From Candidatus Binatia bacterium (GTDB lineage: Bacteria > Desulfobacterota > Binatia > UBA9968): a stretch of DNA of 64,000 bases. Shown piece by piece: positions 4,717-64,000 of this stretch. The first letter of the stretch is position 1, and every line of letters begins with the position of its first letter. The position numbers were made by a program, and so were the translations under genes. The notes below the pieces were generated by a model that saw only the letters and a list, made by a program, of their open reading frames with translations, was not told the origin of the DNA and searched no databases. Location of the stretch: NCBI GenBank assembly GCA_046757725.1, contig JBHHYU010000008.1, positions 230 through 64,229 of the forward strand. The letters are read 5' to 3'.

Positions 4717-4717
4717 A

Positions 4718-5233: not shown

Positions 5234-5269
5234 CTACATCGTCAAGAACGACGCCAAGGGAAGGCGCTG

Positions 5270-10819: not shown

Positions 10820-10840
10820 AGAGCGAGCTGGAGGATAGCT

Positions 10841-11437: not shown

Positions 11438-11441
11438 AGTC

Positions 11442-12968: not shown

Positions 12969-13018
12969 GGTCCGGCGCGTCGTCTTCTCTGATAGGGAAT
13001 CGTCACGGGGGTGAATAG

Positions 13019-13615
13019 ATGACCGAGAAGCCTATCGACCGTAAGACCTTTCTACGTAAGGCCCCGTTGGCAATCGCGCGTGCCTTTGCCCAGGCCGTGC
13101 GCGAGGCGCATCCAACCATCCCAAAATCTTCTCTGCCTCTCCTTCGGCCGCCCGGGGGGGCCGCCAAAGAGACTTTCCTCGACTTGTGCTGCGGGACCGG
13201 TGCGTGCGCAGATGTCTGCCCGGCCAAAGCCATCCAGCTCCGCCCGCGTGAGGATACACCTTCGCTTCGCGCCCCGGTTATCATCCCCAACGAGGCTGCC
13301 TGCGTTGTCTGCGACGAACTCGCTTGCATGTCCGCTTGCCCCAGCGGCGCACTTGTGCCGGTCCCCCGAGAGAAGATCCGCATCGGCTTTGCCCGTGTCA
13401 ACACCGAGACATGCGTGGCATGGACGGGGACGGACCCGGGGTGCAACTATTGCGTTGCCCGTTGTCCACTCGGAACACCGGCCATCTCGATAGATAAGAA
13501 AGCAGACGGAAAAGGGCCGGTCGTTAAGGACGCCTGCATCGGCTGCGGTGTGTGCGAATACTACTGCCCGACCCAACCGCCCGCAATCCGCGTGCTTGCG
13601 AGGGAGCAGGGTTGA
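13019..13615 (+). CDS. Second NapG/NapF-like poly-ferredoxin (4x 4Fe-4S)
   Basis: Four Cys-cluster motifs. The N-terminus (DRKTFLRKAPLAIARAFAQAV) resembles a Tat signal but carries RK instead of RR. A ribosome-binding site lies upstream. Confidence 0.55.
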   Translation: MTEKPIDRKTFLRKAPLAIARAFAQAVREAHPTIPKSSLPLLRPPGGAAKETFLDLCCGTGACADVCPAKAIQLRPREDTPSLRAPVIIPNEAACVVCDELACMSACPSGALVPVPREKIRIGFARVNTETCVAWTGTDPGCNYCVARCPLGTPAISIDKKADGKGPVVKDACIGCGVCEYYCPTQPPAIRVLAREQG

Positions 13616-15976: not shown

Positions 15977-16058
15977 AGAGCGCAGCAGAAATAGAATTCA
16001 CAAAGCGGAATGGGGCAGGGGGTCTTGATGCTGACCAGTGGATTCCAGAAGGAGAGTG

Positions 16059-19000: not shown

Positions 19001-19538
19001 CGATTACGTTTACGTGGATGCCAACCCGGCCGACCGCCCCTACCTCGGCGCAACGCCCAGCGATCCTTTCTACAAGGTATCGCGCTGCATGCTGCGAGTG
19101 AAATACAACCATGCTTATCCCTATAACATCGTCATGATGAAGCACGCCCCGTTCATCGCCACAGAAAAGAGCGTCAAGGCACACGAAACACGCCCCGACG
19201 GCCGCGCCCTATCGGAAAATACCGGCTACCAGGCCAATCTCCGCTACGGCTCCCAGCAATCCGTCACCCGTAATTGGCACATGCCAATGCACCAAACGGA
19301 CAACCTTTTTCACAAGTCAAAGGTCTTTATGGGGTTTATCTTTGGCGGTGAAGCCGACAACCACGCGATCAACACCGTACCGAAGGAAACCCTGGTGCGC
19401 GTCACGAAGGCTGAGGACGGAGGCCTTGGCGCCAAAGGCATCTGGAAACCGGCCACCACCGGCTACACGCCGGACAACGAGAACGACTTCATGAAACGAT
19501 ATCTGGCAGGGGAGCTGGTCAAGGTGCCGGGCAAATAG
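16059..19538 (+). CDS. nxrA: Tat-exported NarG-type molybdopterin oxidoreductase alpha subunit, periplasmic NXR/NarG-like (NxrA candidate, ~1160 aa)
   Basis: Twin-arginine motif TRRDFLRWMGIGSG. The N-terminal Cys/His FS0-type motif is VCSPNDTHACRV. The size matches periplasmic NxrA (~1150 aa) rather than type-II enzymes (~920-980 aa) or cytoplasmic NarG (~1250 aa). A gamma-like subunit lies upstream and a beta subunit downstream. The alternative ATG at 16065 has better ribosome-binding-site spacing. Confidence 0.7.
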   Translation: MTMNDEKLQDRNRLTRRDFLRWMGIGSGTAVLSTGLPLRLLAAARPGENPLAGSVDRNWEKIYRNQYKYDRVFDWVCSPNDTHACRVRAYVRNEIVTRLGSTYDYQTYADLYGNKATPNWNPRQCAKGYTFHRVIYGPYRLRHPIVRKGWKAWADAGFPELRPENKAKYMFDNRGQDEFVQISWEDALQSIAKAIVAISTRYSGEGGKRRLLAQGYQPEMVEAAAGAGTRCVKMRGGMGLLGVIGKYGLYRLNNSLALLDAKIRGVGPEKALAGRNWSNYTWHGDQAPGHPWVHGLQTSDCDFNDLRFTKLIILDGKNLVENKLPDAHWFIECMERGGKIVVIAPEYGPPATKADYWIPIRPETDTALWLGVTKLIFENKWYDETFVKRHTDFPLLVRTDTLRRLRAHEIFPNYSSNLSPDGPSMKIQGLTREQHSKLGDFVIWDQKNNGPAALTRDDVGETMAKKRLDPTLEGTFKVKLVDGKEVEVATLWTLYRTHLRDYDLDTVSEITHAPKNLIEQLAKDIGAIKPVAIHQGEGINHWFHGTEMNRAAYLPLMLTGNIGRPGAGGHTWAGNYKAGLFQGSPWTGPGFKGWVAEDPFHPNLDPKAHGKNVKIHGYTKGEEPAYWNHGDRALILNTPKFGRKNFTGETHMPTPTKAIIFNNVNLINNAKWAYGMIKNVNPNIEMIVSLDIQMTASIEYADIALPANSWMEFEGLEMTASCSNPFLQIWKGGISPVFDSRDDLTILAGIAGELAEITGESRFRDHFKFAAPEQRGIYIQRLLDTCTTTAGYKLKDIMAGKYGPPGGSLLNFRTYPRIPFYEQIHDSEPFHTDTGRLHAYADIPEAIEYGENFIVHREGPEATPYLPNVIVSSNPHIRPEDYGIPLTAEHWDERTVRNVKLPWSRVKETKNFLWEKGFHFYCLTPKTRHRVHSGWSNVDWHMLYDSNFGDPYRLDKRAPTVGEHQLHINPQAARKLGINDGDYVYVDANPADRPYLGATPSDPFYKVSRCMLRVKYNHAYPYNIVMMKHAPFIATEKSVKAHETRPDGRALSENTGYQANLRYGSQQSVTRNWHMPMHQTDNLFHKSKVFMGFIFGGEADNHAINTVPKETLVRVTKAEDGGLGAKGIWKPATTGYTPDNENDFMKRYLAGELVKVPGK

Positions 19539-19572
19539 AGGGAGCTTGCAAGATAGACCGAGGAGAACTCAG

Positions 19573-19869
19573 ATGCCTTATGACGATCCTGATCCCACGG
19601 ATCCCAATATCTTGGTGGGGGTAGCCCTGCCGGCCGATGCGGAAGTAATATGCGAGATGGCCTACGTCTTTGCCGAAGAATTTATCCGAATGGGGTACGA
19701 TCGAGAGCGAGTGCTGCAGGTTTTCAAGAACCCGTTTTACACCGGTCCGCACAATGCTTACCGGGACCTGGGCGAAGAGAAAGTCCAGTCCATTATCGAG
19801 GAGTGTATCCACGCATGGGGCGGTGTCTGTTTTGTTGATTGCGACGACGGAAAGGAGACAGAACCATGA
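19573..19869 (+). CDS. Small acidic Cys-containing protein of unknown function, translationally coupled to nxrB
   Basis: 98 aa with a GAGGAG ribosome-binding site upstream. Its stop overlaps the nxrB start (ATGA). Cys residues include a C-terminal CFVDCDD. It occupies the entire nxrA-nxrB intergenic space. Confidence 0.5.
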   Translation: MPYDDPDPTDPNILVGVALPADAEVICEMAYVFAEEFIRMGYDRERVLQVFKNPFYTGPHNAYRDLGEEKVQSIIEECIHAWGGVCFVDCDDGKETEP

Positions 19870-21131
19870 GTCAGGTTTACAACTGGCAACTCGGCCGCAA
19901 GATGGATTATCCCTTTCCGGCCGCATATCCGAAGCGGCAGTTCGCCTTTGTCTTTAATATCAACCGCTGCATCGCCTGCCAGACCTGTACCATGGCCTGC
20001 AAATCAACCTGGACCTTCAGCAAGGGCCAGGAACATATGTGGTGGGCCAACGTCGAGACCAAACCTTATGGTGGTTATCCCCAGTTTTGGGACATGAAGA
20101 TCCTGCGGCTTCTCGAGGAAGCCAACCCCGGAGGGCAGCAATGGTCGGGAACCCCTTCCGGGAACTCCAAAAACCCCTACGGTCGTTTTGACGGACAAAC
20201 TATTTTTGAGGCTAAGAAAGCGCTTCAGCCCGGGAGCTCACGGGTCCTAGGTTACCTTCCCACCGACGAGGAGTGGAACTTTCCCAACATCTATGAGGAC
20301 AATCCGCTCGGCAAGAAAGGGGTGCCCAACCAATTCGACACAACCGGAGTGGAGCTGCCCGTACACAAGACCTGGTTCTTTTATCTGGCGCGTATTTGCA
20401 ACCACTGTACCTACCCCGGGTGTCTGGCAGCCTGCCCGCGCAAGGCCATTTACAAACGCCCTGAGGACGGCATCGTCCTCATCGACCAGAAGGAGTGCCG
20501 TGGCTACCGTAAGTGCGTGGAGGCCTGCCCTTACAAAAAGGCAATGTATCGGGGCAATACCCGAGTGACCGAGAAATGCATTGCCTGCTACCCACGAGTC
20601 GAGGGTAAAGACCCCGAGAGTGGTGGCCAGCCTATGGAAACGCGTTGCATGGCGGCGTGCGTGGGCCAGATGCGCATGCAGGGCCTAGTCAAAATGAACC
20701 GGGACGGCACCTGGACCGAAGACCGACACAATCCGATCTACTACCTCGTGCATGTGGCCAAAGTAGCCCTACCGCTTTATCCCGAACTCGGCACTTTACC
20801 CAATGGTTACTATATTCCTCCCCGCTGGGTACCGCGACCTTATCTTCGGCAGATGTTCGGTCCAGGCGTTGACAACGCGATCGAGCGTTATATTAACCCG
20901 GACCGAGAACTCCTTGCGGTCCTGCAGCTTTACCGGCGCTCCAACCGAATCATCTTCCGCTATGAAATTAAGAAGGGGCCAAAGATCTATGAGGCCACGC
21001 ACCGCGGCCGGAAAGTGACGCTGTACAACGACACCATTATCGCTTATGGCCGAAACAACAAGGAGATCTTCCGAACCACTGTTGAGGAGCCGGTTTATGT
21101 ACGGTCGAAAAAACATGCCAACTCGATATGA
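19866..21131 (+). CDS. nxrB: NarH/NxrB-type Fe-S beta subunit (4 clusters, NxrB-like insertion), 421 aa
   Basis: The N-terminus MSQVYNWQLGRKMDYPF...FAFVFNINRCIACQTCTMACKSTW resembles periplasmic NxrB. Four Cys clusters are present, including the inserted CIACYPRVEGKDPESGGQPMETRCMAAC. A GGAAAGGAGA ribosome-binding site lies upstream. Confidence 0.75.
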   Translation: MSQVYNWQLGRKMDYPFPAAYPKRQFAFVFNINRCIACQTCTMACKSTWTFSKGQEHMWWANVETKPYGGYPQFWDMKILRLLEEANPGGQQWSGTPSGNSKNPYGRFDGQTIFEAKKALQPGSSRVLGYLPTDEEWNFPNIYEDNPLGKKGVPNQFDTTGVELPVHKTWFFYLARICNHCTYPGCLAACPRKAIYKRPEDGIVLIDQKECRGYRKCVEACPYKKAMYRGNTRVTEKCIACYPRVEGKDPESGGQPMETRCMAACVGQMRMQGLVKMNRDGTWTEDRHNPIYYLVHVAKVALPLYPELGTLPNGYYIPPRWVPRPYLRQMFGPGVDNAIERYINPDRELLAVLQLYRRSNRIIFRYEIKKGPKIYEATHRGRKVTLYNDTIIAYGRNNKEIFRTTVEEPVYVRSKKHANSI

Positions 21132-21217
21132 AGAGATAAAGAGCCCGTATTCCGTTCGTTTTCATTTCCTCCTGCGCAACGTCCGGCGCCTTCAGGTCAC
21201 CCACAGTTCAGGAGATC

Positions 21218-22024
21218 GTGATGAAACCTGAAAATCTGAGAAAAGAACAAGAGGTCAGGGAGGGCGATCTAGCCCTCTGCCGAGCCACTCTGTATAGCGC
21301 GCTGGCGCTCGGCTTCCGACCGCCCACAGAGGAAACATTAACTCGCCTCGCCTCTACGGAGGGTGCAACGGTTTTGGCCGGCGCAGCGGCGCTGCTGGAC
21401 GGACAGCACCAGGTAACCCTCACCTCCGCCGCAGAGGATCTCAGCAAAATAAAAAAAACCTCCGTATCAGAGCTCGAAGTCTCATTCTGGCGCCTATTCG
21501 GCCATACCGTACGCGGCCAGGTACCCCTATATGAAACCGAGTACGGTGTTGATTCTCTTTTCCAGCAACCGCAGGAATTGGCAGACCTATTAGGTTTTTA
21601 CCACGCATTCGGTCTCGCCTTAGACCCGAAAGAACACGAACGGGCAGATCATGTTAGTTGCGAACTCGAGTTTCTCTCCTTTCTTGCCCTCAAAGAGGTC
21701 TACGGCTTGGAGCAACGGGACGACCCTATGCTGGAAGAGACACGTAAGGCCGCGCGCACCTTCTTACGGGATCATCTCGGTCGGTTCGCGCCTGCCTTCA
21801 CCAGGAAGCTTTCTCGTGAAGACCGGGAGGGCTTTTACGGGGCTCTAGGTGAGCTCTGCGCGAGGTTTGTGATCGAAGATTGTACCCGACTCAGCGTGTC
21901 GGTCGGCCCAGAGAGTTTAGGCTTGCGTCCAGCTGCTGAAGATCAAGTGCCGATGGCATGTGACAATGGAGCGGAGTGCACTGAGTTGTCCGGCGCTTGC
22001 GAACAGGAAATAATGGAAAAATGA
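21218..22024 (+). CDS. TorD/NarJ/DmsD-family redox enzyme maturation chaperone (delta subunit)
   Basis: Contains the family motif E-H-E-R-A-D-H-V-S-C-E-L-E-F-L-S-F-L (DHxxxELEFLxxL), typical of TorD/NarJ. The gene lies downstream of the beta subunit. Confidence 0.7.
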   Translation: MMKPENLRKEQEVREGDLALCRATLYSALALGFRPPTEETLTRLASTEGATVLAGAAALLDGQHQVTLTSAAEDLSKIKKTSVSELEVSFWRLFGHTVRGQVPLYETEYGVDSLFQQPQELADLLGFYHAFGLALDPKEHERADHVSCELEFLSFLALKEVYGLEQRDDPMLEETRKAARTFLRDHLGRFAPAFTRKLSREDREGFYGALGELCARFVIEDCTRLSVSVGPESLGLRPAAEDQVPMACDNGAECTELSGACEQEIMEK

Positions 22025-22977
22025 GCCCTGGGGTTCTTCTCAGTTACGACTCCAGTTTAATGGAAGAGGCTGTCTTCCTCGCTTTGCAGGGACATCCGGC
22101 CGCCGTGGAATTTTTCGGTGAGCGCAACAAACTCTACGAAATCAGTGATTCGGAGGAACAAGAGCGTGCCTTTCGGGATTTCCATTGCGCCTGGTTTACC
22201 CGTTTAGAATTCGCCGACCAGATCGAAAAGGCAGTCAACGAACACCCTTTTCTTACTTCCAGTGTCAGGCGCTGTGTCGTAGCTTGCGTCTCAAGAAAGC
22301 AAGATGAAGGAGCTGAACTCTTTGTCGGTTCCCAAGCAGAAAACAGCGAAAAAGAGCGTCGTACGGTGCGAATCCTATTGAGACCTGAATCATTTCTTGA
22401 CTCCCTTACTCTACTAAGACTGCTTCGCCATGAACTTTTGCACATCACGGACATGCTCAGCACTAGCTTCGGCTATGACCCGATCCTACCGAAGGCACCA
22501 GGCGGGCCCGCCTATGACCAATTACTACAAGACCGCTACCGTGTCCTGTGGGATGCAACGATAGATGGTCGAATGGTGCGGCGCGGCTGGGCGCCCGATT
22601 CGATCCGTGTAGAGCGCCTTTGTGAATTCCGCCATGCCTTTCCCATGTTCAGGGAAGCGGCCTCTCAGCTGTTTGATCGCTTTTTCGACCAAGAGCCACA
22701 TACGCATGGCGAATTGGTTACATTCGCCTGCAACCCCATGGCCGCCGTAGATGACTCACCAATGACGCGCAGCCCCGGAAGCCGGTGCCCTCTTTGCGGT
22801 TTTCCAACGTATGCGTTCGAGCCGGCGCCTGAGCACCTGCCTCTAGAGGTCCTCTCTCAGATCACTCAAGACTTTCCGCGGTGGCGCCCAACTCAGGGTC
22901 TTTGCACCCAGTGTGCGGATCTTTACCGGGCACGTTGGGCCTCGTCTCGTGCAGAGAGTCCTTTTCCGGGAACATAG
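22021..22977 (+). CDS. Hypothetical protein with HExxH motif and C-terminal CxxC...CxxC zinc-ribbon, translationally coupled to the chaperone gene
   Basis: The ATGA overlap with the chaperone gene's stop indicates translational coupling. The motif LLRHELLHITD carries HExxH. The C-terminus holds CPLCGFPTYAF...CTQCADLY. I recognise no known family. Confidence 0.45.
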   Translation: MSPGVLLSYDSSLMEEAVFLALQGHPAAVEFFGERNKLYEISDSEEQERAFRDFHCAWFTRLEFADQIEKAVNEHPFLTSSVRRCVVACVSRKQDEGAELFVGSQAENSEKERRTVRILLRPESFLDSLTLLRLLRHELLHITDMLSTSFGYDPILPKAPGGPAYDQLLQDRYRVLWDATIDGRMVRRGWAPDSIRVERLCEFRHAFPMFREAASQLFDRFFDQEPHTHGELVTFACNPMAAVDDSPMTRSPGSRCPLCGFPTYAFEPAPEHLPLEVLSQITQDFPRWRPTQGLCTQCADLYRARWASSRAESPFPGT

Positions 22978-49776: not shown

Positions 49777-50607
49777 ATGGATGATGCAAAATACACCTGT
49801 GCGAAGTTACTCACAACCCCGGCAGAGCTGATAAAAAAGTTGGGACGCCCCGACCTCCGCCTTATCGATACCCGGCCGGCGGAAAGGTTTGCTCAGGGCC
49901 ACATCCCCGGTTCCATCCATTTCGACCTTTTTGGAATAAGCCTCGTTGACACCAGTCCTGCCCCGCTCAAAGCCTTCCTGTCAATGATACGTCATCTTTT
50001 TGAGTTGCGTGGTATAGACCTCGACAAGGAGGTTGTCTTCTACGAAGACGATTCGGGTATGCGGGCGGCCCGCGGGTTATGGTTTCTGGAGTACTTTGGT
50101 CACCAAAGAGTCCATGTGCTTGATGGCGGCATACACGCCTGGGAACGAGCCGGCTACCAGATCACGACCGATACTATCTCACCCGAGCCATCTCAACTGA
50201 TAACGGCAGAGAAACGCGATGTCCTGGCCACAGCCGATGATGTTTTGAGTTCTTTAAAAAAGAAGAGGGTGTGCATAATTGATACCCGTAGCGACGATGA
50301 GTATCTGGGCAGGAATATTCGAGCAGCGCGAGGCGGAGCGATTCCTGGGGCTATACATCTGGAGTGGGTTCAAAACCTTGATCCTTCGGGAAGATACAAA
50401 CCCAATACCGAGCTACGAGAACTCTATTTCAACATGGGGCTCACTCAAGACAAAGAGGTTATCACCTACTGCCAGGGGGGCTATCGTGCGGCCCATAGTT
50501 ATCTAGCCCTAAGACTCCTCGGTTATCCAAGAGTGCGCAATTATCTGGGCTCATGGAGAGAATGGGGGGACCGGCTGGACCTACCGATCGAGAAACCCTG
50601 GGAGTAA
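49777..50607 (+). CDS. Tandem-rhodanese thiosulfate/3-mercaptopyruvate sulfurtransferase
   Basis: Two rhodanese domains, with the active-site loop CQGGYRAAHS in the second. Confidence 0.7.
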   Translation: MDDAKYTCAKLLTTPAELIKKLGRPDLRLIDTRPAERFAQGHIPGSIHFDLFGISLVDTSPAPLKAFLSMIRHLFELRGIDLDKEVVFYEDDSGMRAARGLWFLEYFGHQRVHVLDGGIHAWERAGYQITTDTISPEPSQLITAEKRDVLATADDVLSSLKKKRVCIIDTRSDDEYLGRNIRAARGGAIPGAIHLEWVQNLDPSGRYKPNTELRELYFNMGLTQDKEVITYCQGGYRAAHSYLALRLLGYPRVRNYLGSWREWGDRLDLPIEKPWE

Positions 50608-50711: not shown

Positions 50712-51092
50712 TTACGAACAGACAACGTAACTATACTGTAGCGCCCCCCGTAAGGCGACAACAGGAAGGAGCGCGCAGTTCACCCTGCTGCGTGCGGTGG
50801 TCCCCCCCAGGTTTTCTAAAACCTGCTGATCGCTAATCCGTATGATTGCAGCAGGTGTCAACCCTTCGAGAGACTCAAAAAGAATAGACGCCGACGCCTT
50901 GGCAATGGCGCACATCTCGCCGGAAAATTTAGCTTCCAGGACATCGCGCTCTTCTGTCCATCTAATCTCCACCCGGATGCGGTCCCCACATAACGGATTG
51001 ACATGCTCGAATTGGAGATCTGGGTTTGTAATCCTCCCAAATCGTTTTGGGTGTTTCGCATGGTTCAGGATTTTATCACTATACAAACTCAC
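50712..51092 (-). CDS. SufU/IscU-type Fe-S cluster scaffold (NifU N-terminal domain)
   Basis: The motif HAKHPKRFGRI...NPLCGDRI...GEMCAIAKAS and a C-terminal Cys give the three-Cys scaffold pattern. Confidence 0.7.
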   Translation of the reverse strand: MSLYSDKILNHAKHPKRFGRITNPDLQFEHVNPLCGDRIRVEIRWTEERDVLEAKFSGEMCAIAKASASILFESLEGLTPAAIIRISDQQVLENLGGTTARSRVNCALLPVVALRGALQYSYVVCS

Positions 51093-51132: not shown

Positions 51133-52251
51133 TTACGAGGTGAGAATACCCTTTGCCGACCTCATGTTTCCACCCGTTCGACCGGTCCGCACCATGAGCA
51201 GCTCGCTCACCACCGCCACGGCCAGCTGTTCCGGAGTTTCTGCCCCAATATCGAGCCCAACAGGAATATGAATTCTGCCGATCTCGCCATCTTCGAAACC
51301 CATCTCTTTGAGCCTCCCGGCCAATGCCACTGCCCGCTTCCGGCTACCCAAAACCCCTATATATCTTGCATCGGACCGAAGCAACACCTTTAAGACCGGC
51401 AAGTCGTGTTTGGCCGCATGGGCGAGAAGCACCGCAAAACTAAACTTGTTAAATACTCGCTCTTGGGCGATCTCCCCCGGAAATCCCACTAGAATTTCGC
51501 TGGCGGTCGGAAAACGCTCCCGATTGGCAAAGATCGGCCTGCTATCGATGACATGGACACGAAATCCTACCTCGGCGCCAAGCCTAGCTACAGGTACCGC
51601 TACCTGACCCGCCCCGAAAACATAGAGATCGGGGCTATAATTAACAATATCAATGAATACTTCTACGGCGGCTGACTTCCCACTTACCGGTTTCCATGTG
51701 CTGTCCAGATCCAGTGATCGGGAAATTCCCTTGGACAATAGATCCTTTGCTACCCGCCAGGCCACCTGGTTGAGCCCTTCCTCGCCAAGGGAACCACAAG
51801 TCTCCCCTTCCGGAGTCACAATGGCCTTTGCGGAGATTTTAACCGAGGAAAGAGAAGAGCGGATAACGGTCAAAAGAGCGAAAGGATTCCCCGTACCTAT
51901 GAGACCCTTGATTCGACCGGAGAGGTCAGGCTCCATCCTGACCGGCTCGACTAAGACCCGTAGGGCTCCCGCACACGTCAGCCCGATCTCAAGCGCATCT
52001 TCTTCGCCGAGCTGCATCCGGAGGAGCTGTGGTATACCCGACCGAGCCACTTCCACTGAAGCCTCCATCACCTGGGAATCCACACAACCTCCGATGGTCA
52101 CTGCACCTTTAAGGCTCTGGCCTCCAATGACAAGCATCTTGGAGCCCTCTTTCCTTGGGGCCGTCCCCTCGGTAGCAACCACCGTAGCCAAACAGGCTTC
52201 AGAAGAACACTCCTCCGAGGCCTTCAGAAGATCATCAAGGAATTGTCTCAT
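51133..52251 (-). CDS. XdhC/CoxI-family molybdoenzyme maturation factor
   Basis: An N-terminal XdhC_CoxI domain (ATVVATEGTAPRKEGSKMLV) plus a C-terminal Rossmann-like XdhC_C domain. Confidence 0.7.
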   Translation of the reverse strand: MRQFLDDLLKASEECSSEACLATVVATEGTAPRKEGSKMLVIGGQSLKGAVTIGGCVDSQVMEASVEVARSGIPQLLRMQLGEEDALEIGLTCAGALRVLVEPVRMEPDLSGRIKGLIGTGNPFALLTVIRSSLSSVKISAKAIVTPEGETCGSLGEEGLNQVAWRVAKDLLSKGISRSLDLDSTWKPVSGKSAAVEVFIDIVNYSPDLYVFGAGQVAVPVARLGAEVGFRVHVIDSRPIFANRERFPTASEILVGFPGEIAQERVFNKFSFAVLLAHAAKHDLPVLKVLLRSDARYIGVLGSRKRAVALAGRLKEMGFEDGEIGRIHIPVGLDIGAETPEQLAVAVVSELLMVRTGRTGGNMRSAKGILTS

Positions 52252-52448
52252 CCGTAGCTGTTCTGCACAAAAATACGCCCCGCATGCAGAGAAACCTTAA
52301 CCGTAGTCATCCAGCTAGTTGTAGTTCCTCAATATTCGCTCAGCTTGTGTTTCGGCTACCTAGACTTCGCCTCTGGAGGTCTGCCGGTTTCCCGATCACT
52401 AAGGTTGCCTTGAAACAAAATATTCCTTCCCCGAATAGCAATCGAGTA

Positions 52449-53048
52449 TCACGAAGGTAAAGCAGAAGAGAGCTTCACGTAGTCTTCCCAGGTATCCATA
52501 TCGCCCGGAAAAGACCGGTCAACCTCGACCTCGCGCACCCACTCCGGATGGGTGGCCAGGAGCTTCCAGACCCCTTTGTCGCCGTGCAAGGCTTTGAGCT
52601 GTTCGAATAGCGCAGCCGCAAAGAGCATCGGGTGCCCCGAGCGACCACGATAGGAAACGCGCACAACCGGCGACTTCATCTCTTGCCAAACCCTCATCAC
52701 CGCAGCTATGGTCTCATGCTCTAACCCAGGCTGATCTGCCAGGATCAAAGCAGCTGCTTCTGCCTTCCGGTCGATCGCCTCAAGACCAGCTCGAATGGAG
52801 GCACTACAACCCTCATGGAAGTCGGTTGCCTCCACGAACCGGGCCCTTTTTACAGTCACGCTGCGCCGAACCTCTTCAGCCTCGTGACCAATCACCACCA
52901 CCACTTCATCAAGAGGCGAAGTCTCTACTTGCTTGATAACCCATTCCAGCACCGTCGTTCCACGCCAGGGAAGGAGTTGCTTAGTTCGTTTTCCAAGCCG
53001 ACTGGAAGTACCGGCAGCAAGAACCAGACCGGAAACAAACGCGCTCAT
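52449..53048 (-). CDS. MobA-like nucleotidyltransferase, molybdenum cofactor cytidylyltransferase (MocA-like)
   Basis: The motif LVLAAGTSSRLG is a GT-A nucleotidyltransferase signature. The gene sits inside the CODH cluster and overlaps the XdhC-YHS gene by 4 bp. Confidence 0.65.
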   Translation of the reverse strand: MSAFVSGLVLAAGTSSRLGKRTKQLLPWRGTTVLEWVIKQVETSPLDEVVVVIGHEAEEVRRSVTVKRARFVEATDFHEGCSASIRAGLEAIDRKAEAAALILADQPGLEHETIAAVMRVWQEMKSPVVRVSYRGRSGHPMLFAAALFEQLKALHGDKGVWKLLATHPEWVREVEVDRSFPGDMDTWEDYVKLSSALPS

Positions 53049-54028
53049 GCCTGCGTATCTGCCGGGAGATACTTTCGGGGGTCTTTTTCAAAGCTTTTCT
53101 TGCAGTGGCTATTGCAGAAATAATACATCGCATTTTGGAATCGGAAGCTGTGCCCCGCCGTCCGAGGATCGACGGTCATATGGCAAACGGGATCCTCTAC
53201 CAAGGCAGCCTTTGCCGGTGTTTCGGAGCTACGCTGCTCCGATGCATTCTTACCTCGGGTCCGCCGAAGAACAACGATTTCCGCCACGATGCTCAGTGCC
53301 ACCTCCTGGAAGGTTCGCGCGGAAATATCCAAACCCGCCGGCCCCTTAACCAACGCCAGTTTCTCCCTGGGAATTCCGTCTTCACACACGTGGTTAACGG
53401 TCTCTTTAAATCTCTTTTTGCTGGCCACAAGACCGAGATATTCTGGAGACAGACCTATTAGCCCTTTTACGGCCTCCTCGTCCCAATTTCCATTGGTAGC
53501 CACGACCGAGTACCGATCCCCCCTCTCCCCTAATTCCTTCTTATCTATTCGATTTAAAATGATGTCGGCATCGGGAAATCTTTCTTTTGTGGCGGCGGGA
53601 TCAATGAGAACGACCTTGAAGCCAACGGCTTTACCTATTTTCACCAGTGCTTCAGCAGCCGGTGAAACACCGCAAACTAGAAGTTCCGGCTCCGGAAGGT
53701 AGGGCTCTACGTAGATCTCCATCGTTCCACCGCTATAACAGCTCATCCGGTAGAGCTCAATTCCCTGCCGTGATTCCTCGTTTAGATTCGGGGTCAGCAC
53801 TACCAGCCTGGGCTCGCCATCCATGATGGCTTTCTGCGCTTCCTGTAGTACGGTGGGCTGGGCACAGGCCCCTCCAACCCACCCCAGAAAATCCCCAGCA
53901 GCGCTAATAATGGCTTTGTCCCCAGGCGCACCCGAAGTAGGTCGTTCTCTCCGGACGACAGTGGCAAGCGCGAACGGCTTTCCCTCAGCCAAAAGCTCGC
54001 TGGCCTTCTTTAAGACAGGGTTATTCAC
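53045..54028 (-). CDS. XdhC-family maturation factor with C-terminal YHS metal-binding domain
   Basis: An N-terminal XdhC_CoxI and Rossmann-like domain, then DPVCHMTVDP...HSFRFQNAMYYFCNSHCKKSFEKDPRKY, a textbook YHS domain. Confidence 0.65.
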   Translation of the reverse strand: MNNPVLKKASELLAEGKPFALATVVRRERPTSGAPGDKAIISAAGDFLGWVGGACAQPTVLQEAQKAIMDGEPRLVVLTPNLNEESRQGIELYRMSCYSGGTMEIYVEPYLPEPELLVCGVSPAAEALVKIGKAVGFKVVLIDPAATKERFPDADIILNRIDKKELGERGDRYSVVATNGNWDEEAVKGLIGLSPEYLGLVASKKRFKETVNHVCEDGIPREKLALVKGPAGLDISARTFQEVALSIVAEIVVLRRTRGKNASEQRSSETPAKAALVEDPVCHMTVDPRTAGHSFRFQNAMYYFCNSHCKKSFEKDPRKYLPADTQA

Positions 54029-54098
54029 GGGACCGCGCTAATGATAGCACGCAGACGAACTGCAAGAAAGGCTTTTCGCTTACAGCCTGCCTAGAATG

Positions 54099-56465
54099 CT
54101 ATTCAGCGGCCCCGTGATCATGGAGGCATTTCCAGACTTTGTCCGGTGTAACGGGGATATCAATGTGGCGCACCCCGAGATGCCAGAGGGCATCCACAAC
54201 AGCATTTACGATCGCTGCAGGGGCACCTACTGTGGCTGACTCTCCCACCCCTTTAGCACCTAGCGGATGATGGGGGGATGGCGTACAGGTTTTGTCGGTT
54301 TCCCATTTTGGCGTCTCCACGGCTGTGGGTAAGAGGTAGTCCATGAAGCTCCCTCCATGTATGTTGCCCTCGGCGTCGTAACTGATCTCTTCGTACATCG
54401 CAGGGGCAAGGCCCATTGTAAGGCCGCCGTGAATCTGCCCTTCTACAATCATGGGGTTGATGATATTGCCGCAGTCATCTACGGCCACGAAGCGCCGGAT
54501 CTTCACCTCCCCGGTGCCTTTGTCAATATCCACCACGCAAATATAGCTTCCGAAAGGGTAGGTGAGGTTCGGCGGATCGTAATAAGAGACCGCTTCAAGA
54601 CCTGCTTCCATGCCTTGTGGATGATTGGTATAAGCGGCGAAGGCAATCTCCTGAATCGTCTTCGCCTGGGAAGGATTGCCTCGTACGAAAAATTTCCCCG
54701 GCTCCCACTCGAGATCAGCCTCGTTGGCCTCCAGCAGGTGAGCAGCAATCTTTTTCGCCTTATCCCGTATCTTGCGTGCTGCCATCGCGCCTGCAGCCCC
54801 TGCCACAGGAGTGCTGCGGCTAGCATAGGTGCCTAGACCATAAGGAGCCGTGTCAGTATCCCCTTCTTCGACCGTGATGTGGTCTACCGGGATCCCGAGC
54901 TCTTCCGCAACAATCTGGGCATAGGTTGTCTCGTGTCCTTGCCCCTGAGACTTGGTTCCGAAACGGGCAATGACTTTGCCCGTAGGATGGATTCTAATCT
55001 CGGCGGAGTCAAACATTTTCAGGCCCAGGATATCAAAGTGTTTGGACGGACCGGCCCCCAGGATCTCGGTGAAGCTGGATACACCGATTCCCATGAACTC
55101 TCCCTTTTTCCGCTTCTCCGCTTGCTCCTTGCGGAGAGCGGCGTAGCCGATCTTTTCCATAGCCAAATCAAGGGCTCGTGAGTAGTTGCCGCTGTCATAT
55201 TCCCAACCTAAAGCTGACTTGTACGGGAATTGTTCGGCCTTGATGAAATTCTTCTTTCTAAAGTCGGTTGGATCCATCTTGAGTTCATGGGCCATAATGT
55301 CCGCCATCCTCTCGATGGCGTGAACAGCTTCGGTCACGCGGAATGAACAACGGTAGGCGATGCCACCGGGTGGTTTATTGGTATAGACACCGTCCACCTC
55401 TACATGAGCCGCTTTGAAGTCGTACGAGCCCGTACAAATGTGGAATAGTCCGGCTGGAAACTTCGACGGGTTAGCCGCTGCATCCGTGTAGCCGTGATCG
55501 GCTATGGTCTTCACGCGCAGTCCGGTAAGGGTCCCATCCTTCTTGGCCGCTAGCTCGCCGGTGATATGGTAGTCACGGGCGAAGGAATCGGCCTGGAGGT
55601 TTTCCATCCGATCCTCGATCCATTTTATCGGCAACCCGGTTACGACTGCGGCAGCGACAGCGATCACATAACCGGGATAGACCGGTACCTTTCCACCAAA
55701 GCCTCCACCGATATCCGGTGAGATAATGCGGATCTTTTCCTCCGAAAGCCCAACATGCCCTGCCACAAGCGCAAAGACGGTACGGATGGCATGGGGCGCC
55801 TGGGTTGTCATCCAGACCGTGAGCTTTCCACTTACCTTGTCGAACTGGGCTACGCAGCCCGGTGTCTCAATGGATGCCACATGAATCCGCGGGAGGTAGA
55901 TATCCTGCTTGACCTTGACATCCGCCTCCTTAAAAGCCTTCTCAGTAGCCGCCTTATCACCAACCTCCCAGTGCCAGATGTGGTTATCTTTCTTGTCCTT
56001 CTTGTCGGTCCGCAGCACCGGCGCCCCAGGCTCTAGTGCCTTGAAGGGATCCACGACCACCGGAAGCGGCTCATACTCCACTTCAACCGCCGCCACTCCG
56101 TCCGCAGCAATATAGCGGTCGGTCGCCACAACGGCAGCCACCTCCTGCGCCTGATACATGACCTTTTCCACGGGCAAAACCATCTGCGTATCCGACATGA
56201 GTGTCGGCATCCAGTGAAGATTATAGCCGGCCAGCGTCTCGCCGGTAATCACCGCCGCCACGCCCGGGATCGCAGTGGCCTTGGAAGTATCAATCTTCTT
56301 AATTTTGGCATGGGCATAAGGGCTCCGAACGATGTCTAAATAGACCATCCCCGGAAGCTTGACATCATCAATGTATGTCCCTTTACCACGGATGAACCGC
56401 GCGTCCTCCTTCCGCTTTACGGAGTGACCCATACCTCCGATTTCCGGGCTTGTTCGAGGCGCCAT
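54099..56465 (-). CDS. coxL: Aerobic carbon monoxide dehydrogenase large subunit, form I (Mo-Cu) active-site signature
   Basis: The xanthine dehydrogenase/CoxL-family Mo-binding subunit carries the loop GIAYRCSFR. Form I is characterised by AYxCSFR, whereas form II has AYRGAGR. It lies downstream of coxM-coxS. Confidence 0.75.
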   Translation of the reverse strand: MAPRTSPEIGGMGHSVKRKEDARFIRGKGTYIDDVKLPGMVYLDIVRSPYAHAKIKKIDTSKATAIPGVAAVITGETLAGYNLHWMPTLMSDTQMVLPVEKVMYQAQEVAAVVATDRYIAADGVAAVEVEYEPLPVVVDPFKALEPGAPVLRTDKKDKKDNHIWHWEVGDKAATEKAFKEADVKVKQDIYLPRIHVASIETPGCVAQFDKVSGKLTVWMTTQAPHAIRTVFALVAGHVGLSEEKIRIISPDIGGGFGGKVPVYPGYVIAVAAAVVTGLPIKWIEDRMENLQADSFARDYHITGELAAKKDGTLTGLRVKTIADHGYTDAAANPSKFPAGLFHICTGSYDFKAAHVEVDGVYTNKPPGGIAYRCSFRVTEAVHAIERMADIMAHELKMDPTDFRKKNFIKAEQFPYKSALGWEYDSGNYSRALDLAMEKIGYAALRKEQAEKRKKGEFMGIGVSSFTEILGAGPSKHFDILGLKMFDSAEIRIHPTGKVIARFGTKSQGQGHETTYAQIVAEELGIPVDHITVEEGDTDTAPYGLGTYASRSTPVAGAAGAMAARKIRDKAKKIAAHLLEANEADLEWEPGKFFVRGNPSQAKTIQEIAFAAYTNHPQGMEAGLEAVSYYDPPNLTYPFGSYICVVDIDKGTGEVKIRRFVAVDDCGNIINPMIVEGQIHGGLTMGLAPAMYEEISYDAEGNIHGGSFMDYLLPTAVETPKWETDKTCTPSPHHPLGAKGVGESATVGAPAAIVNAVVDALWHLGVRHIDIPVTPDKVWKCLHDHGAAE

Positions 56466-56467
56466 CT

Positions 56468-56947
56468 CTATCCTCCTTGCCGCAACTTCTCAGCGGCATA
56501 AAGAACGGACTTCACAATATTTACATAACCCGTGCAACGACAGAGGTTTCCGGATATCGCTACCCTGACCTCATCCTCGGTCGGACTTGGGTTCTCCTTC
56601 AGAAAGGCTGTTGCCGTCATCATCATACCAGGCGTGCAGAAACCGCATTGCAGTCCGTGCTCCTGCCAGAACCCCTCCTGGATAGGATTGAGTTTCCCGT
56701 CTTGTTCCAGCCCTTCAACCGTGGTGATCTCTCGACCATCCGCCTGGACCGCAAAGACCGTACATGATTTGACCGCTTTCCCGTCCAGAATCACACTGCA
56801 AGCCCCACAGTGGGACGTATCACAGCCTATGTGGGTACCGGTGAGGCCCAAGACATCCCTCAGGCAATGAACCAAAAGGAGCCTGGGCTCGACCTCAGCT
56901 TCCCTATCCGCCCCATTGACTTTGATACGGATCTTTTGTGTCGCCAT
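56468..56947 (-). CDS. coxS: CO dehydrogenase small subunit, 2x[2Fe-2S]
   Basis: A plant-type ferredoxin motif [11 protein letters not shown] plus the second-cluster motif [10 protein letters not shown] in a 159-aa protein. Confidence 0.85.
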
Positions 56948-56949
56948 GA

Positions 56950-57825
56950 CTAGATCCCTCCTCGAGCCCGATCCAGGGCACGGTTGAGCGCACGGACCGT
57001 AAGCACTCGGACCACATTCTTTTTATATTCCTCGGATCCTCGCCGATCCTCTATGGGTTGCGACGCCTCGGATGCCAGTTGCCCGGCACGTTTGATGGCT
57101 ACGTCGTCAATTTTCTTGCCCTGCAGCGCGTCTTCTGCTTTCTTCGGCTTCATCGGAGTCGAACCAACATTCGTAAGGCCGATCCCAACCCGTTCGCAAC
57201 TACCATTTTTTCCCAGAGTCAACTGGGCAGCCACTCCGACGGTAGCGAAATCACCCACTTTTCTCTCCAGTTTGAAATATGCCCCGCCGCTACCGGAGGG
57301 GGGGATCGGTATGCGAATTTCAGTGAGGATCTCATCGGACCCGAGAGCCGTATCAAATAGGCCGGTAAAGAAAGCCGTGATAGGAATCACCCGCTCGCCC
57401 TTGGACCCGGTAACTGCCAGCTCAGCCCCTATAGCCAACATGGTGGCCGGGTGGTCGTTGGCCGGATCTCCATGGGCGAGGTTTCCACCCACCGTGGCCC
57501 GGTTACGAACAAGCGGGTCCGCAATAACGGCGCTCGTGTCTAAAAGGATCGGATATTTTGAGCGTATCAGATCAGACTTTTCGAGTTCAGCTTCCTTGGT
57601 AAGGGCGCCGATCCTGAGAAAACCACCGGCCTCCTTGATATACTCCAATCCTGAGATCCGATTGATATCAACGAGATAACGCGGCCCAGCCAGACGCAAC
57701 TTCATCAGAGGAATCAGACTCATGCCGCCCGATAATATCTTCGCTTCCGTTCCATGGCGCTGCAGCAACCCGATGGCCTCATGCACGGTAGCCGGCGCAT
57801 AATAGTCAAAAGAGGGAGGAATCAT
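56950..57825 (-). CDS. coxM: CO dehydrogenase medium subunit, FAD-binding
   Basis: An FAD-binding PCMH-type domain ([15 protein letters not shown]) and a CO_deh_flav_C domain. Confidence 0.8.
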
Positions 57826-61447: not shown

Positions 61448-62061
61448 GTGTAACGGAAGCCACTGTTTTTTATTTAAGCTCATTCCCCAGTACAGTGCAT
61501 CTGACTCGGAGACGTTATAGTCTAGAGGTCTGTTTGTGTAAGCCTCGTGCTCTGACGATCGCTTCTACGAACGGCTTAGGGTGGCGATCAATACTTACCC
61601 TGCTCATGGCGAGAACCGGTGCCAACGGGGCGTACCTAATCACTAGTGACGTGGATGAAAGGGATCGGCCTTTCCTCATCGGCGAGAAAACAACAGACGG
61701 ATTTTTCAGGACAAGGGGGAGGTTAGAGACGGCTACCGCGAGAGGGTTGGCCTATCCGCTTTATGCTGATATGCTTTCGCGTGAAATGGCGAAACAGGAT
61801 TTGAACGAGCCGAAAAAGTTTGCGGCCAAAATTCTTAGCGAATTTCCATACGGATTTGAGGCCTACAACGGCTTTCCCTCAAGTCCGTGAAGGTAGGATA
61901 CTTCGACAAGGCATTCGGGGGCCGATCACATGGGGGCCTCTTCTATCCTGACTCTTAGGGGGACCACTGAAGACGCACATTTTAGCCGGGATATTAACGT
62001 TGCCGGTATACGGCTTTCAGCGTACCAAAGAATAAATAAACTCAGGGGGTTAAACAAATCT

Positions 62062-63237
62062 ATGATTTCACCGCTCAAACTTCCACAGAGAATTCTTCTA
62101 GGACCGGGTCCCAGCAATGTACACTCGGCGGTACTGAAGGCGCTCTCAGCTCCAGTGGTAGGCCATCTCGATCCCGAGTTCTTTAATATCATGGAAGAGA
62201 ACAAGGAGATGCTTCGGTGGCTCTTCCAAACCAAAAATGAACTCACCTTTCCGGTTTCCGGAACAGGCAGTGCCGGTATGGAGACATGCCTGGTGAACCT
62301 GATCGAGGAAGGAGATCCTGTCCTGGTAGGCATCAACGGGGTTTTCGGTACGCGTATGGCGGACGTCGTCGAACGCTGTGGGGGAAAGCTTATCCGCGTG
62401 GAGGCTCCCTGGGGCGAGATCATCCGGCCCGAACAGATTGCAAGGGTACTTAAACAGAACCCGGTTAAGATCGTAAGCCTCGTTCACGCTGAGACCTCTA
62501 CTGGCATCTGGCAACCCGTGGAGGAAATTTCAAGGATGGTCCATGACGCCGGGGCACTTCTGGTTCTCGATACGGTAACCTCTTTGGGTGGCTGTCCGGT
62601 CACCTTGGATACCTGGCACGTGGATGCCTGTTATAGTGGCACCCAGAAATGTCTTAGTTGCCCTCCGGGACTCTCTCCTGCCTCCTTCAATGATGCAGCG
62701 CGGAAAAAATTTGAAAATCGCAAGAAAAAAGTCAAGAGTTGGTACCTGGATGTCACAATGATCGAACGCTACTGGGGAAAAGAGAGAGTTTATCACCACA
62801 CGGCACCGGTCTCCATGAATTATGGCCTCCACGAGGCTCTGCGTTTGGTCAAGGAAGAGGGACTGAAAGTAAGGTTCCGCCGTCACGAGCTGAACCACAA
62901 AGCCCTTGCAGCCGGCCTCCAAGCCCTGGGAATACAGCTCGCATCGCAGGGCGGCCACCGCCTGTGGATGCTCAATAGCGTAGCGATTCCGGAAGGTGCA
63001 AAAGACTCTGAGGTCCGAAAAAGACTACTCCAAGAATTCAGTATTGAGATCGGTTCCGGCCTGGGATCGTTGGCGGGAAAGACATGGCGCATTGGCCTGA
63101 TGGGAGAATCCAGCAGAAAAGAGTACGTTATTAAATTACTCCGGGCCCTGGGTGATATCCTCCCTGATTACGGTCTCAAGGCTTCTGCCAAGGAGGCAGT
63201 CGCTGCAGCAGAGGAGACTTACCGACTCAATCAGTAA
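62062..63237 (+). CDS. Class-V aminotransferase (serine-pyruvate / alanine-glyoxylate aminotransferase family)
   Basis: The N-terminus LLGPGPSNV, a PLP-fold, and the Lys context SGTQKCLS. The start is set at the ATG at 62062, which has an AGGGGG ribosome-binding site; the ORF track extends further upstream. Confidence 0.75.
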   Translation: MISPLKLPQRILLGPGPSNVHSAVLKALSAPVVGHLDPEFFNIMEENKEMLRWLFQTKNELTFPVSGTGSAGMETCLVNLIEEGDPVLVGINGVFGTRMADVVERCGGKLIRVEAPWGEIIRPEQIARVLKQNPVKIVSLVHAETSTGIWQPVEEISRMVHDAGALLVLDTVTSLGGCPVTLDTWHVDACYSGTQKCLSCPPGLSPASFNDAARKKFENRKKKVKSWYLDVTMIERYWGKERVYHHTAPVSMNYGLHEALRLVKEEGLKVRFRRHELNHKALAAGLQALGIQLASQGGHRLWMLNSVAIPEGAKDSEVRKRLLQEFSIEIGSGLGSLAGKTWRIGLMGESSRKEYVIKLLRALGDILPDYGLKASAKEAVAAAEETYRLNQ

Positions 63238-63907: not shown

Positions 63908-64000
63908 ACATTACCTCCCTCAAAAGTACCTTGACATGATTTGCGTTCTCCGTCACAAAAAACCCCCTGAAGTTCTTTATGCTAGGTATCACTCACCTTT

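Follow-up and report, generated by a model that had tools for sequence, protein, structure and literature searches.

Genetic evidence for CoxF in Cu incorporation exists for O. carboxidovorans only, where the protein is needed for incorporation of Cu into the [CuSMoO2] site and is the proposed source of the metal (Pelzmann et al. 2014, PMC4240915). In O. carboxidovorans OM5, CoxF is encoded downstream of form-I coxL in the pHCG3 cluster coxBCMSLDEFGHIK, and combines an XdhC_CoxI domain with an XdhC Rossmann domain. XdhC itself binds Moco, protects the sulfido ligand and inserts Moco (summarised in PMC4240915). R. capsulatus XdhC, the mycobacterial XdhC-like entries PDB 2WE7-2WE8, and 3ON5 belong to the same fold family as the XdhC-type proteins described below, but lack a YHS domain and serve Cu-free enzymes. 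The YHS domain is known from another setting, the adenylyl cyclase of M. phlei, on which it conferred Cu-specific activation (PMC4626032). Among cultured CO oxidisers, T. roseum DSM 5159, in which CO oxidation is proven (PMC2615216, PMC6776052), comes closest to the local layout of the locus analysed here. Its megaplasmid (trd_A0564-6 and a downstream XdhC family gene) has the same coxM-coxS-coxL-CoxF::YHS arrangement without a MoxR/VWA neighbour and with a MocA-like nucleotidyltransferase nearby, although adjacent xdhC2 and SufU-like genes are missing there. Thermogemmatispora also oxidises CO with a structural operon, coxMSLIG, that has no adjacent D/E genes (PMC6776052).

The locus comes from the MAG of an uncultured Candidatus Binatia bacterium and lies within a 64 kb window, by which we mean the whole stretch of DNA that was analysed. 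It encodes a form-I (Mo-Cu) aerobic CO dehydrogenase in an operon where coxM-coxS-coxL is followed by coxF::YHS-mocA-xdhC2-sufU-like, all on the minus strand. ORF calls and Pfam searches reproduced, in order and coordinates, the six minus-strand ORFs of the first-pass annotation (coxMSL, then XdhC::YHS, MocA and XdhC). That annotation had listed XdhC::YHS, the cytidylyltransferase and the second XdhC as the only maturation genes; all three are present, but a SufU-like gene lying 40 bp downstream of xdhC2, outside its coordinates, had been overlooked and is the seventh member of the unit. The FAD-binding medium subunit coxM (56950..57825, 291 aa) carries FAD_binding_5 (PF00941, 164 bits) and CO_deh_flav_C (PF03450, 84 bits) domains and is separated by 2 bp from coxS (56468..56947, 159 aa), which encodes the [2Fe-2S] small subunit (Fer2_2, PF01799, 112 bits; PF00111). 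The M-S-L gene order is that of form I, as opposed to the S-L-M order of form II. The large subunit coxL (54099..56465, 788 aa) scores 1261.5 bits against the equivalog TIGR02416 (cutoff 991.15), and its product is 72.8% identical to the form-I CoxL of T. roseum and 61.6% identical to CoxL of O. carboxidovorans. Direct reading and a regular-expression search place the active-site loop AYRCSFR, which includes the Cu-ligand Cys373, at residues 370-376 (55338..55358), and the same loop is found in both reference proteins. The form-I loop, and with it a need for Cu, had been proposed at the outset; the re-read motif and the equivalog match bear this out and, at the level of sequence, identify CoxL as a true form-I, Cu-requiring enzyme.

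Directly after coxL lies coxF::YHS (53045..54028, 327 aa, GTG start), which overlaps mocA by 4 bp and encodes XdhC_CoxI (63.4 bits) and XdhC_C (91.9 bits) domains, each above its Pfam cutoff, followed by a C-terminal YHS/TRASH domain; its N-terminus, MNNxxL, is common to 327-aa homologues. The earlier reasoning that nothing CoxF-like is encoded here was wrong. The protein is 38.8% identical to O. carboxidovorans CoxF over 273 residues (E 3e-45 to 1e-53) and 38% identical to the T. roseum fusion, as against about 24-26% identity to CoxI (24%) or the XdhC2 of the window, and the corresponding bit scores are 145-166 to CoxF and 73-75 to CoxI/XdhC2. In the reverse direction, the best matches of O. 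carboxidovorans CoxF among 126 XdhC-type genes bear a YHS domain, lie directly after coxE and reach 44% identity; this post-coxE slot is occupied by the homologues in Acidobacteriota, Gammaproteobacteria and Paraburkholderia. The core cysteines C55 (GGxCA) and C97 (53738..53866) are conserved across the alignments, being present in 202/202 fusion proteins as well as in YHS-less paralogues and the O. carboxidovorans protein. C97 corresponds to C108 of O. carboxidovorans CoxF, within the putative Cu-binding motif MCPSHGTM, and is kept in 204/204 proteins; S110 and G112 are likewise shared with the window protein. Among the motifs of the published CoxF model, this Cys motif alone is conserved in the fusion family, whereas the RGD (CoxE-binding) and RHGXRXP (phytase) motifs are not conserved at homologous positions (RHGxRx[PS] in 0/204) and look specific to O. 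carboxidovorans rather than family-defining. On these comparisons we assign XdhC::YHS as an orthologue of CoxF with an extra C-terminal YHS domain and, given this orthology, CoxF is not missing from the locus. The O. carboxidovorans protein differs in lacking the 20-residue linker and 47-residue YHS domain, and its cluster in having coxD, coxE and coxG, none of which is adjacent to coxF::YHS in the window.

The YHS domain (residues 277-323; 53060..53200; PF04945, 40.2 bits against a cutoff of 30.3) is joined to the CoxF core by a linker (residues 257-276; 53201..53260), TRGKNASEQRSSETPAKAAL, that varies in length and sequence between homologues. An AF2 model of CoxF::YHS gives pLDDT 74-87 for the YHS domain and below 50 for residues 259-273, and so shows a domain predicted to be folded and flexibly tethered to the core. 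Because the model as a whole is of moderate quality (pLDDT 65.8, pTM 0.50), we claim no docking geometry from it. The spacing D-x2-C-x22-C-x3-C matches the family pattern of an Asp and Cys-x(19-22)-Cys-x3-Cys, and the candidate ligands D279, C282, C305 and C309 occur in 202/202 family members, with a possible further ligand, M284, in 201/202. The YHS/TRASH domains of Cu-ATPases and of the M. phlei cyclase belong to the same Pfam family and have the same Asp and three Cys pattern, although those domains regulate or feed a transporter or cyclase, whereas the one in the window forms part of a maturation factor for a Moco enzyme. By analogy, the YHS tail of CoxF is a putative Cu-binding module. 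CoxF does not strictly need it, since alphaproteobacterial CoxF has no YHS domain and in the fusion of Deinococcus sp. AJ005 the first of the YHS cysteines is gone.

A CoxF core with a YHS tail is the form common outside Alphaproteobacteria: the more than 200 family members examined span at least 8 phylum-level lineages and include cultured isolates. The pairing of an XdhC-YHS fusion with form-I coxL, singled out by the first-pass annotation at this one locus, proved almost exclusive in the survey, as the nearest coxL encodes AYRCSFR in 65 loci and is ambiguous in 1, and none of 44 XdhC paralogues in the same loci carries a YHS domain. MocA::CoxF::YHS and CoxG::CoxF::YHS fusions also occur and link it to the Moco/CODH pathway. 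The idea of an undescribed Cu-delivery factor needs dividing: the fusion is a good candidate for Cu handling, but CoxF is already the published Cu supplier (PMC4240915). What is apparently undiscussed is the widespread YHS-tailed CoxF, as we found no discussion of a CoxF-YHS fusion in the literature.

The observation that CoxD/CoxE-like genes are missing from the locus holds. Pfam searches of the other large ORFs and tblastn (E<=1) with CoxD, CoxE and CoxG of O. carboxidovorans and a metagenomic CoxG found no MoxR-type CoxD, VWA CoxE or SRPBCC CoxG anywhere in the window, nor any of the three in about 3.3 kb of further sequence from that strain past position 64000. CoxD/E were found within 10 kb in 0/7 contexts from the clade of the window. 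Of 44 well-flanked loci, defined by 6 kb or more of sequence on each side, 11 have neither gene; these are mostly from Dehalococcoidia/Chloroflexia and include T. roseum. These absences favour a reading in which the organism lacks CoxD, CoxE (and CoxF) and uses the YHS-XdhC fusion in their place as a self-sufficient alternative route of Cu delivery, which we nevertheless consider improbable. Both CoxD and CoxE are present in the CoxF::YHS cluster in 27 of the 44 well-flanked loci and one of them in 6 more (CoxE at the locus edge in 5), and in the PGAP-annotated isolates of Paraburkholderia, Natronorubrum and Deinococcus the XdhC(YHS) gene stands beside MoxR and VWA genes. One locus (L063) has the exact cassette of the window together with D, E and G, and in two others (L062 and L056) a form-I M-S-L-F::YHS unit adjoins a second cox-like operon that bears the D/E genes. 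Because the fusion usually adjoins both genes, CoxF::YHS is no substitute for CoxD/CoxE, and replacing them is not what the YHS tail evolved for. Moreover, the fusion protein is itself CoxF, and T. roseum, whose locus has neither gene, carries chromosomal genes for CoxE, for a CoxI-like protein and for an AAA ATPase '(CODH associated)'. That a 64 kb window lacks these genes says little about the rest of the genome. Most likely CoxD/CoxE are encoded at another site and, like those of T. roseum, would act in trans; their dispensability in this clade is less likely. We give a probability of roughly 65% to the joint reading that the protein is a CoxF orthologue whose Cu-binding YHS tail adds to CoxF, with CoxD/CoxE not replaced and probably supplied in trans.

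YHS/TRASH folds can also hold structural Zn, and the tail could instead be a structural zinc ribbon, a module for docking to a partner such as CoxL, CoxE or a membrane component, or a Cu sensor gating CoxF, none of which would make it a Cu carrier. Among solved proteins it resembles only the L24e ribbon, a TRASH-fold relative, and the C-terminal tail of phenol hydroxylase PHN, the domain is a sensor in the M. phlei cyclase (PMC4626032), and alphaproteobacterial CoxF functions without it. We nonetheless hold this reading to be improbable: the structural resemblances are statistically non-significant (E>=0.07), the Asp-Cys3 set does not vary, nor, with a single exception, does the adjacent Met, and the domain is linked to the one XOR-family enzyme that requires Cu; the sensor and carrier readings alike imply Cu binding. 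That the operon is silent or decaying, its CODH left unmatured for want of coxD, coxE and coxG, is very improbable even though coxG adjoins coxF::YHS in 4/7 clade relatives and is missing here, and no D/E genes were found, as all seven ORFs are undamaged, lie close together or overlap, and keep all invariant residues of their families, coxG is needed neither for cluster maturation nor for CO use in O. carboxidovorans (PMC4240915), and T. roseum and Thermogemmatispora oxidise CO without D/E beside the structural operon (PMC6776052).

If the YHS tail does bind Cu and supplement CoxF, with CoxD/CoxE still used, maturation could proceed as follows. MocA would make the MCD cofactor, which XdhC2 would carry and load into apo-CoxL, and the Mo centre would be sulfurated, the SufU-like protein possibly relaying sulfur. 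Cytoplasmic Cu(I) would be taken up by the YHS domain and handed to the core thiolates C55/C97, and from these it would reach Mo-SH and, in CoxL, Cys373. A bolder scheme, which we regard as unlikely, is that clusters of the Binatia/Dehalococcoidia type build Mo-S-Cu without CoxD/CoxE, using CoxF::YHS for Cu, XdhC2 for MCD and the SufU-like protein for S. The existence of MocA::CoxF::YHS triple fusions raises the possibility that the XdhC-type CoxF scaffold is where the Cu-S-Mo cofactor is pre-assembled, in which case assembly would precede insertion rather than take place inside the folded apoenzyme, as in the O. carboxidovorans model.

The mocA-like Moco cytidylyltransferase (52449..53048, 199 aa) has a PF12804 domain (134 bits) and scores 155.3 bits against the equivalog TIGR03310 (cutoff 186.45). 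The XdhC-type Moco chaperone xdhC2 (51133..52251, 372 aa) encodes two N-terminal XdhC_CoxI stretches (PF02625) and a Rossmann domain (PF13478), is 26% identical to the CoxF::YHS core and 23% to CoxI, and scores 217.9 bits against NF045664 (<350). The XdhC-type Rossmann domain matches PDB 2WE7-2WE8 and 3ON5 at E 5e-18 and 1e-12, and XdhC is taken as the model for both XdhC2 and the CoxF core. The SufU/IscU-like gene (50712..51092, 126 aa; PF01592, 71 bits) follows xdhC2 in 7/7 clade contexts and is thus a constant member of the cassette. SufU is a zinc-dependent sulfurtransferase of the SUF-like system, and M. tuberculosis and B. subtilis SufU are the nearest PDB relatives of the window protein, which has the cysteines Cys35, Cys61 and Cys106 and shares with SufU the NifU_N fold, the NPLCGD motif with its Asp, and the second and third Cys. 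It differs in having no SufU-specific insertion and in that its gene belongs to a cox cassette with neither sufS nor sufBCD, and it scores 74.8 bits against TIGR01994 SufU (<92.5), with the first 88 residues alone aligned. The roles of XdhC2 and the SufU-like protein are predicted from family membership, and both proteins are under their equivalog cutoffs. On the plus strand, a two-domain rhodanese (49777..50607; PF00581, 147 bits) resembles 3-mercaptopyruvate sulfurtransferase (130 bits, <250) and is a possible sulfur donor of uncertain membership in the unit; it occupies the same antisense position in one clade relative (L092) and is absent from the other clade contexts.

The cox operon lies on the minus strand and comprises coxM (56950-57825), coxS (56468-56947), coxL (54099-56465), a gene encoding an XdhC protein with a fused YHS domain (XdhC::YHS, 53045-54028), a MocA-like gene (52449-53048), a second XdhC gene (xdhC2, 51133-52251) whose product has two N-terminal XdhC_CoxI stretches, and a NifU_N-family gene of 126 aa (50712-51092) located 40 bp downstream of xdhC2, all assigned with Pfam except coxL, which was assigned with TIGR02416. 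The first-pass annotation had placed the first six of these genes accurately, and its form-I assignment of CoxL is borne out by an AYRCSFR loop at residues 370-376 and a score of 1261.5 bits on TIGR02416, the NCBIfam form-I equivalog (cutoff 991.15). CoxL shares 72.8% identity with its form-I counterpart in Thermomicrobium roseum and 61.6% with that in O. carboxidovorans, and the operon belongs to the known form-I CO dehydrogenase (CODH) family. The genes are tightly spaced, with intervals from coxM to the NifU_N-family gene of 2, 2, 70, -4, 197 and 40 bp, and the XdhC::YHS stop overlaps the mocA start. A promoter and terminator scan of 50.4-59.0 kb gave counts no different from those of shuffled sequence, so we draw no operon boundaries from it.

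The XdhC part of XdhC::YHS aligns with O. carboxidovorans CoxF at 38.8% identity over 273 residues (E 3e-45 to 1e-53), compared with 24% identity to CoxI and 26% to the xdhC2 product of its own operon. In the reverse comparison, with 126 XdhC-type genes drawn from 80 genomes, O. carboxidovorans CoxF matches YHS-bearing proteins best (up to 44% identity), and these are encoded directly after coxE, the same slot that coxF occupies in strain OM5. Judged by these alignments, XdhC::YHS is CoxF, and the lack of CoxF implied by the first-pass annotation was an error. Pelzmann et al. 2014 (PMC4240915) found CODH from coxE and coxF mutants to be devoid of Cu and put CoxF forward as the copper supplier. 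The suggestion that XdhC::YHS is an undescribed copper-delivery factor thus agrees with coxF genetics in its copper role but not in its novelty: the protein is a CoxF family member in a domain architecture visible in Pfam annotations. Within the literature that could be searched, we found no paper combining CoxF or XdhC with YHS or TRASH, and a 2026 review of the sulfido ligand of Moco says nothing about CODH maturation. On plasmid pHCG3 of O. carboxidovorans OM5, CoxF and CoxI are alike annotated as XdhC family protein; next to a form-I coxL, this label should be read as CoxF.

The YHS domain scores 40.2 bits (Pfam gathering score 30.3) and has the pattern D279-x2-C282-x22-C305-x3-C309. These four residues, together with C55 and C97 of the core, are invariant among 202 family members, and M284 is kept in 201. 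C97 corresponds to C108 in the MCPSHGTM motif of O. carboxidovorans CoxF, the Cu site proposed by Pelzmann (PMC4240915), of which C108, S110 and G112 are kept in 204, 203 and 204 of 204 aligned members and no other residue is conserved. Across the same 204 proteins, the histidine-acid-phytase motif RHGxRx[PS] of O. carboxidovorans CoxF (residues 266-272) occurs in none, and the RGD motif assigned to CoxE binding in the published model (residues 191-193) is not conserved. An AlphaFold2 model of moderate quality (pLDDT 65.8, pTM 0.50) confidently folds the Rossmann domain and the YHS domain (74-87), and folds the linker, residues 259-273, with low confidence, which is consistent with YHS being a tethered module. 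With its N-terminal domain at pLDDT 36-59, the model is too uncertain to place YHS relative to C55 and C97, and the YHS tail gave non-significant matches only against PDB sequences.

The fusion is tied to the copper enzyme. Of 66 loci with a readable motif, 65 have AYRCSFR in the coxL closest to CoxF::YHS; in the single AYRGAGR case, probably locus L074, CoxF::YHS lies between form-I and form-II operons, directly after the form-I coxL. YHS is absent from all 44 other XdhC paralogues at the same loci (27 xdhC2-type and 17 of a second CoxF-like type). Where the two operon forms adjoin at locus L062, it is the form-II operon that has a CoxD-CoxE-XdhC2-CoxG set, and the form-I operon has CoxF::YHS and CoxG only. 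In addition, a YHS domain conferred Cu-specific activation on an adenylyl cyclase (Linder 2015, PMC4626032). Together, this distribution and the analogy with the cyclase support copper binding by the YHS tail, short of proof. For assembly of the [CuSMoO2] centre there is a single model, built on mutants of O. carboxidovorans and on two sequence motifs, RGD and phytase, that are not conserved. The fusion corrects these two elements. Its YHS domain, tethered and with a fully conserved Asp-Cys3 set, and its tie to form I lend independent support, from comparison, to CoxF as the step that handles copper. The CoxF of most lineages carries YHS, and the pattern points to a thiolate-based Cu(I) hand-off.

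A survey of XdhC-YHS fusions beside form-I coxL, as the first-pass annotation had proposed, upholds the form-I association and also reveals a widespread architecture, with CoxD and CoxE at many loci. Each of the 120 clusters (59-73% identity) from an initial database search has the three Pfam domains, and a 50%-identity representative library gave 481 clusters at E<=1e-30; among the best 150 of these, 108 of 125 full-length proteins end in C-x19-26-C-x2-3-C. GTDB species representatives contain at least 80 loci, nearly all matched via the YHS end; the matches listed span Chloroflexota, Acidobacteriota, Gemmatimonadota, Gammaproteobacteria (including Saccharospirillum impatiens DSM 12546), SAR324, Myxococcota and Actinomycetota. 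In a plasmid collection, full-length matches occur in T. roseum, the archaeon Natronorubrum bangense, Paraburkholderia aromaticivorans, Caballeronia and Deinococcus, and all alphaproteobacterial CoxF proteins in it, as well as that of Nonomuraea, end before the YHS region. Among these, P. aromaticivorans, N. bangense and T. roseum are isolates in which CoxF::YHS is open to testing. Plasmid p380k of Deinococcus sp. AJ005 (L088:8001-9062) encodes a degenerate YHS tail with the first Cys replaced (SPVDGE...TCANC); MoxR and VWA genes nonetheless follow its CoxF.

The reported lack of CoxD- and CoxE-like genes holds for the window. Neither Pfam searches of the remaining large ORFs nor tblastn with CoxD, CoxE and CoxG of O. 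carboxidovorans and a metagenomic CoxG detected any of these three genes in the 64 kb, and same-strain contigs reaching ~3.3 kb past position 64000 contribute just a cyclodeaminase-like gene and a hydantoinase gene. The idea that the fusion replaces CoxD and CoxE is not supported, as CoxF::YHS shares its locus with both in 27 of 44 well-flanked loci (at least 6 kb either side). Six further loci have one of the two: in five, CoxE sits at the extreme locus edge, where CoxD probably falls outside the retrieved stretch, and L042 has CoxD alone. The order M-S-L-G-D-E-F::YHS (letters denoting cox genes) is typical of Acidobacteriota and Gammaproteobacteria, D-E-G-M-S-L-F::YHS of several Chloroflexota and Myxococcota, and xdhC2-mocA-F::YHS-D-E-G-M-S-L of Gemmatimonadota. 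In Paraburkholderia, Natronorubrum and Deinococcus, too, PGAP annotation shows genes for a MoxR ATPase and a VWA protein next to XdhC(YHS). L063, the locus most similar to ours, has the window's cassette plus coxD, coxE and coxG. When its CoxD was compared with a set of 5.8 billion proteins, all 8000 scored candidates passed 1e-30, with no Binatia names among the best 120, and the comparison thus says nothing for or against CoxD in Binatia.

Neither gene is present at the remaining 11 well-flanked loci, which include that of T. roseum. There, the AYRCSFR coxL that we retrieved is on megaplasmid NC_011961, whereas CoxD/E-like genes are carried by the chromosomal operon; absence from a 64-kb window is therefore weak evidence of absence, and a lack of adjacent coxD and coxE should not be annotated as a lack of maturation capacity. 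Wu et al. 2009 assigned form I to megaplasmid genes trd_A0564-6 (PMC2615216), whereas Islam et al. 2019 took chromosomal trd_1206-1208, in the order coxGSLM, as the type I CODH (PMC6776052). The chromosomal operon may instead encode a form-II-type enzyme. Form-I and form-II operons adjoin at L062, L056, L038, L039 and L074, and the arrangement at L062 suggests that CoxD and CoxE are shared in trans.

In all seven contexts available for the window's clade (XdhC::YHS 66-100% identical), the order coxM-S-L-(coxG)-XdhC::YHS-(mocA)-xdhC2-nifU-like is kept wherever the contig reaches far enough, and the L001 contig has the cassette but no coxMSL within 10 kb of it. XdhC::YHS, xdhC2 and the NifU-like gene thus make up the conserved accessory unit, whereas mocA and coxG vary. 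Directly before or after coxF::YHS, coxG is found in four of the seven relatives; in the window, the gap between coxL and coxF::YHS (54029-54098) holds none. The SufU/IscU-like gene, which the first-pass annotation missed, is a constant member of the clade's cassette (relatives at L001:12896-13294, L091:12821-13195, L092:12214-12600 and L063:~12640-13017). Its product has the three Cys and the NPLCGD Asp and is closest to SufU sulfurtransferases, yet scores below the equivalog cutoff. NifU_N-family genes recur in form-I cox clusters of four phylum-level lineages as three subtypes, with the first Cys changed to Asp in Acidobacteriota and a SufU-type insertion in Gammaproteobacteria and SAR324; we found no literature on such genes in cox clusters. 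By its recurrence and sequence, the gene is a candidate sulfur donor or relay for the Mo-S-Cu site. The Parageobacillus G301 cluster has CtaG and two CoxF genes instead, suggesting that the copper modules recruited differ between lineages.

In the mechanism we propose, the MocA-like enzyme would make MCD, XdhC2, acting like R. capsulatus XdhC, would hold and insert the cofactor, and Mo would be sulfurated to Mo-SH with the SufU-like protein as candidate relay, possibly fed by an adjacent rhodanese. The YHS domain would capture Cu(I) and pass it on to the CoxF core (C55/C97), and the core would deliver it to Mo-SH and CoxL Cys373, with CoxD and CoxE probably acting in trans. CoxF is physically tied to the Moco pathway (MCD synthesis) and to CoxG by MocA::CoxF::YHS triple fusions (P0250, P0258, P0286 and P0291, 533-565 aa) and one CoxF::YHS protein with a CoxG/SRPBCC-like N-terminus, judged by eye (P0327, 399 aa). 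Such fusions would also fit a more novel but improbable reading, in which the Cu-S-Mo cofactor is pre-assembled on CoxF.

The rhodanese (49777-50607, plus strand) is a two-domain, 3-mercaptopyruvate sulfurtransferase-like protein, below cutoff, encoded antisense beside the SufU-like gene. This arrangement, with a CrtC/AttH-like neighbour, recurs at L092:12592-13425 and is absent from the other clade contexts; with conservation in two of seven, we leave its cassette membership uncertain. A class-V aminotransferase (61930-63237) considered as a cysteine desulfurase best matches transaminases (211 bits; desulfurase models <=40 bits), and we rejected that role for it. The contig is unusually rich in molybdoenzymes. 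On the plus strand, 466-7130 encodes an ACIII-like complex, in which a fused, QrcB/QrcC-like molybdopterin/4Fe-4S protein is accompanied by NrfD, ActD and cytochrome c subunits, and 8177-13615 encodes a NapA/Fdh-like molybdoenzyme together with partners of ferredoxin type. A cluster of the type II DMSO-reductase family (14396-22977, plus strand; NXR/ethylbenzene-dehydrogenase-like, all genes far below NCBIfam cutoffs) encodes a di-haem cytochrome c::EB_dh haem subunit (526 aa), a 1166-aa alpha and a 430-aa beta subunit, a NarJ-like chaperone and a 326-aa ORF without family.
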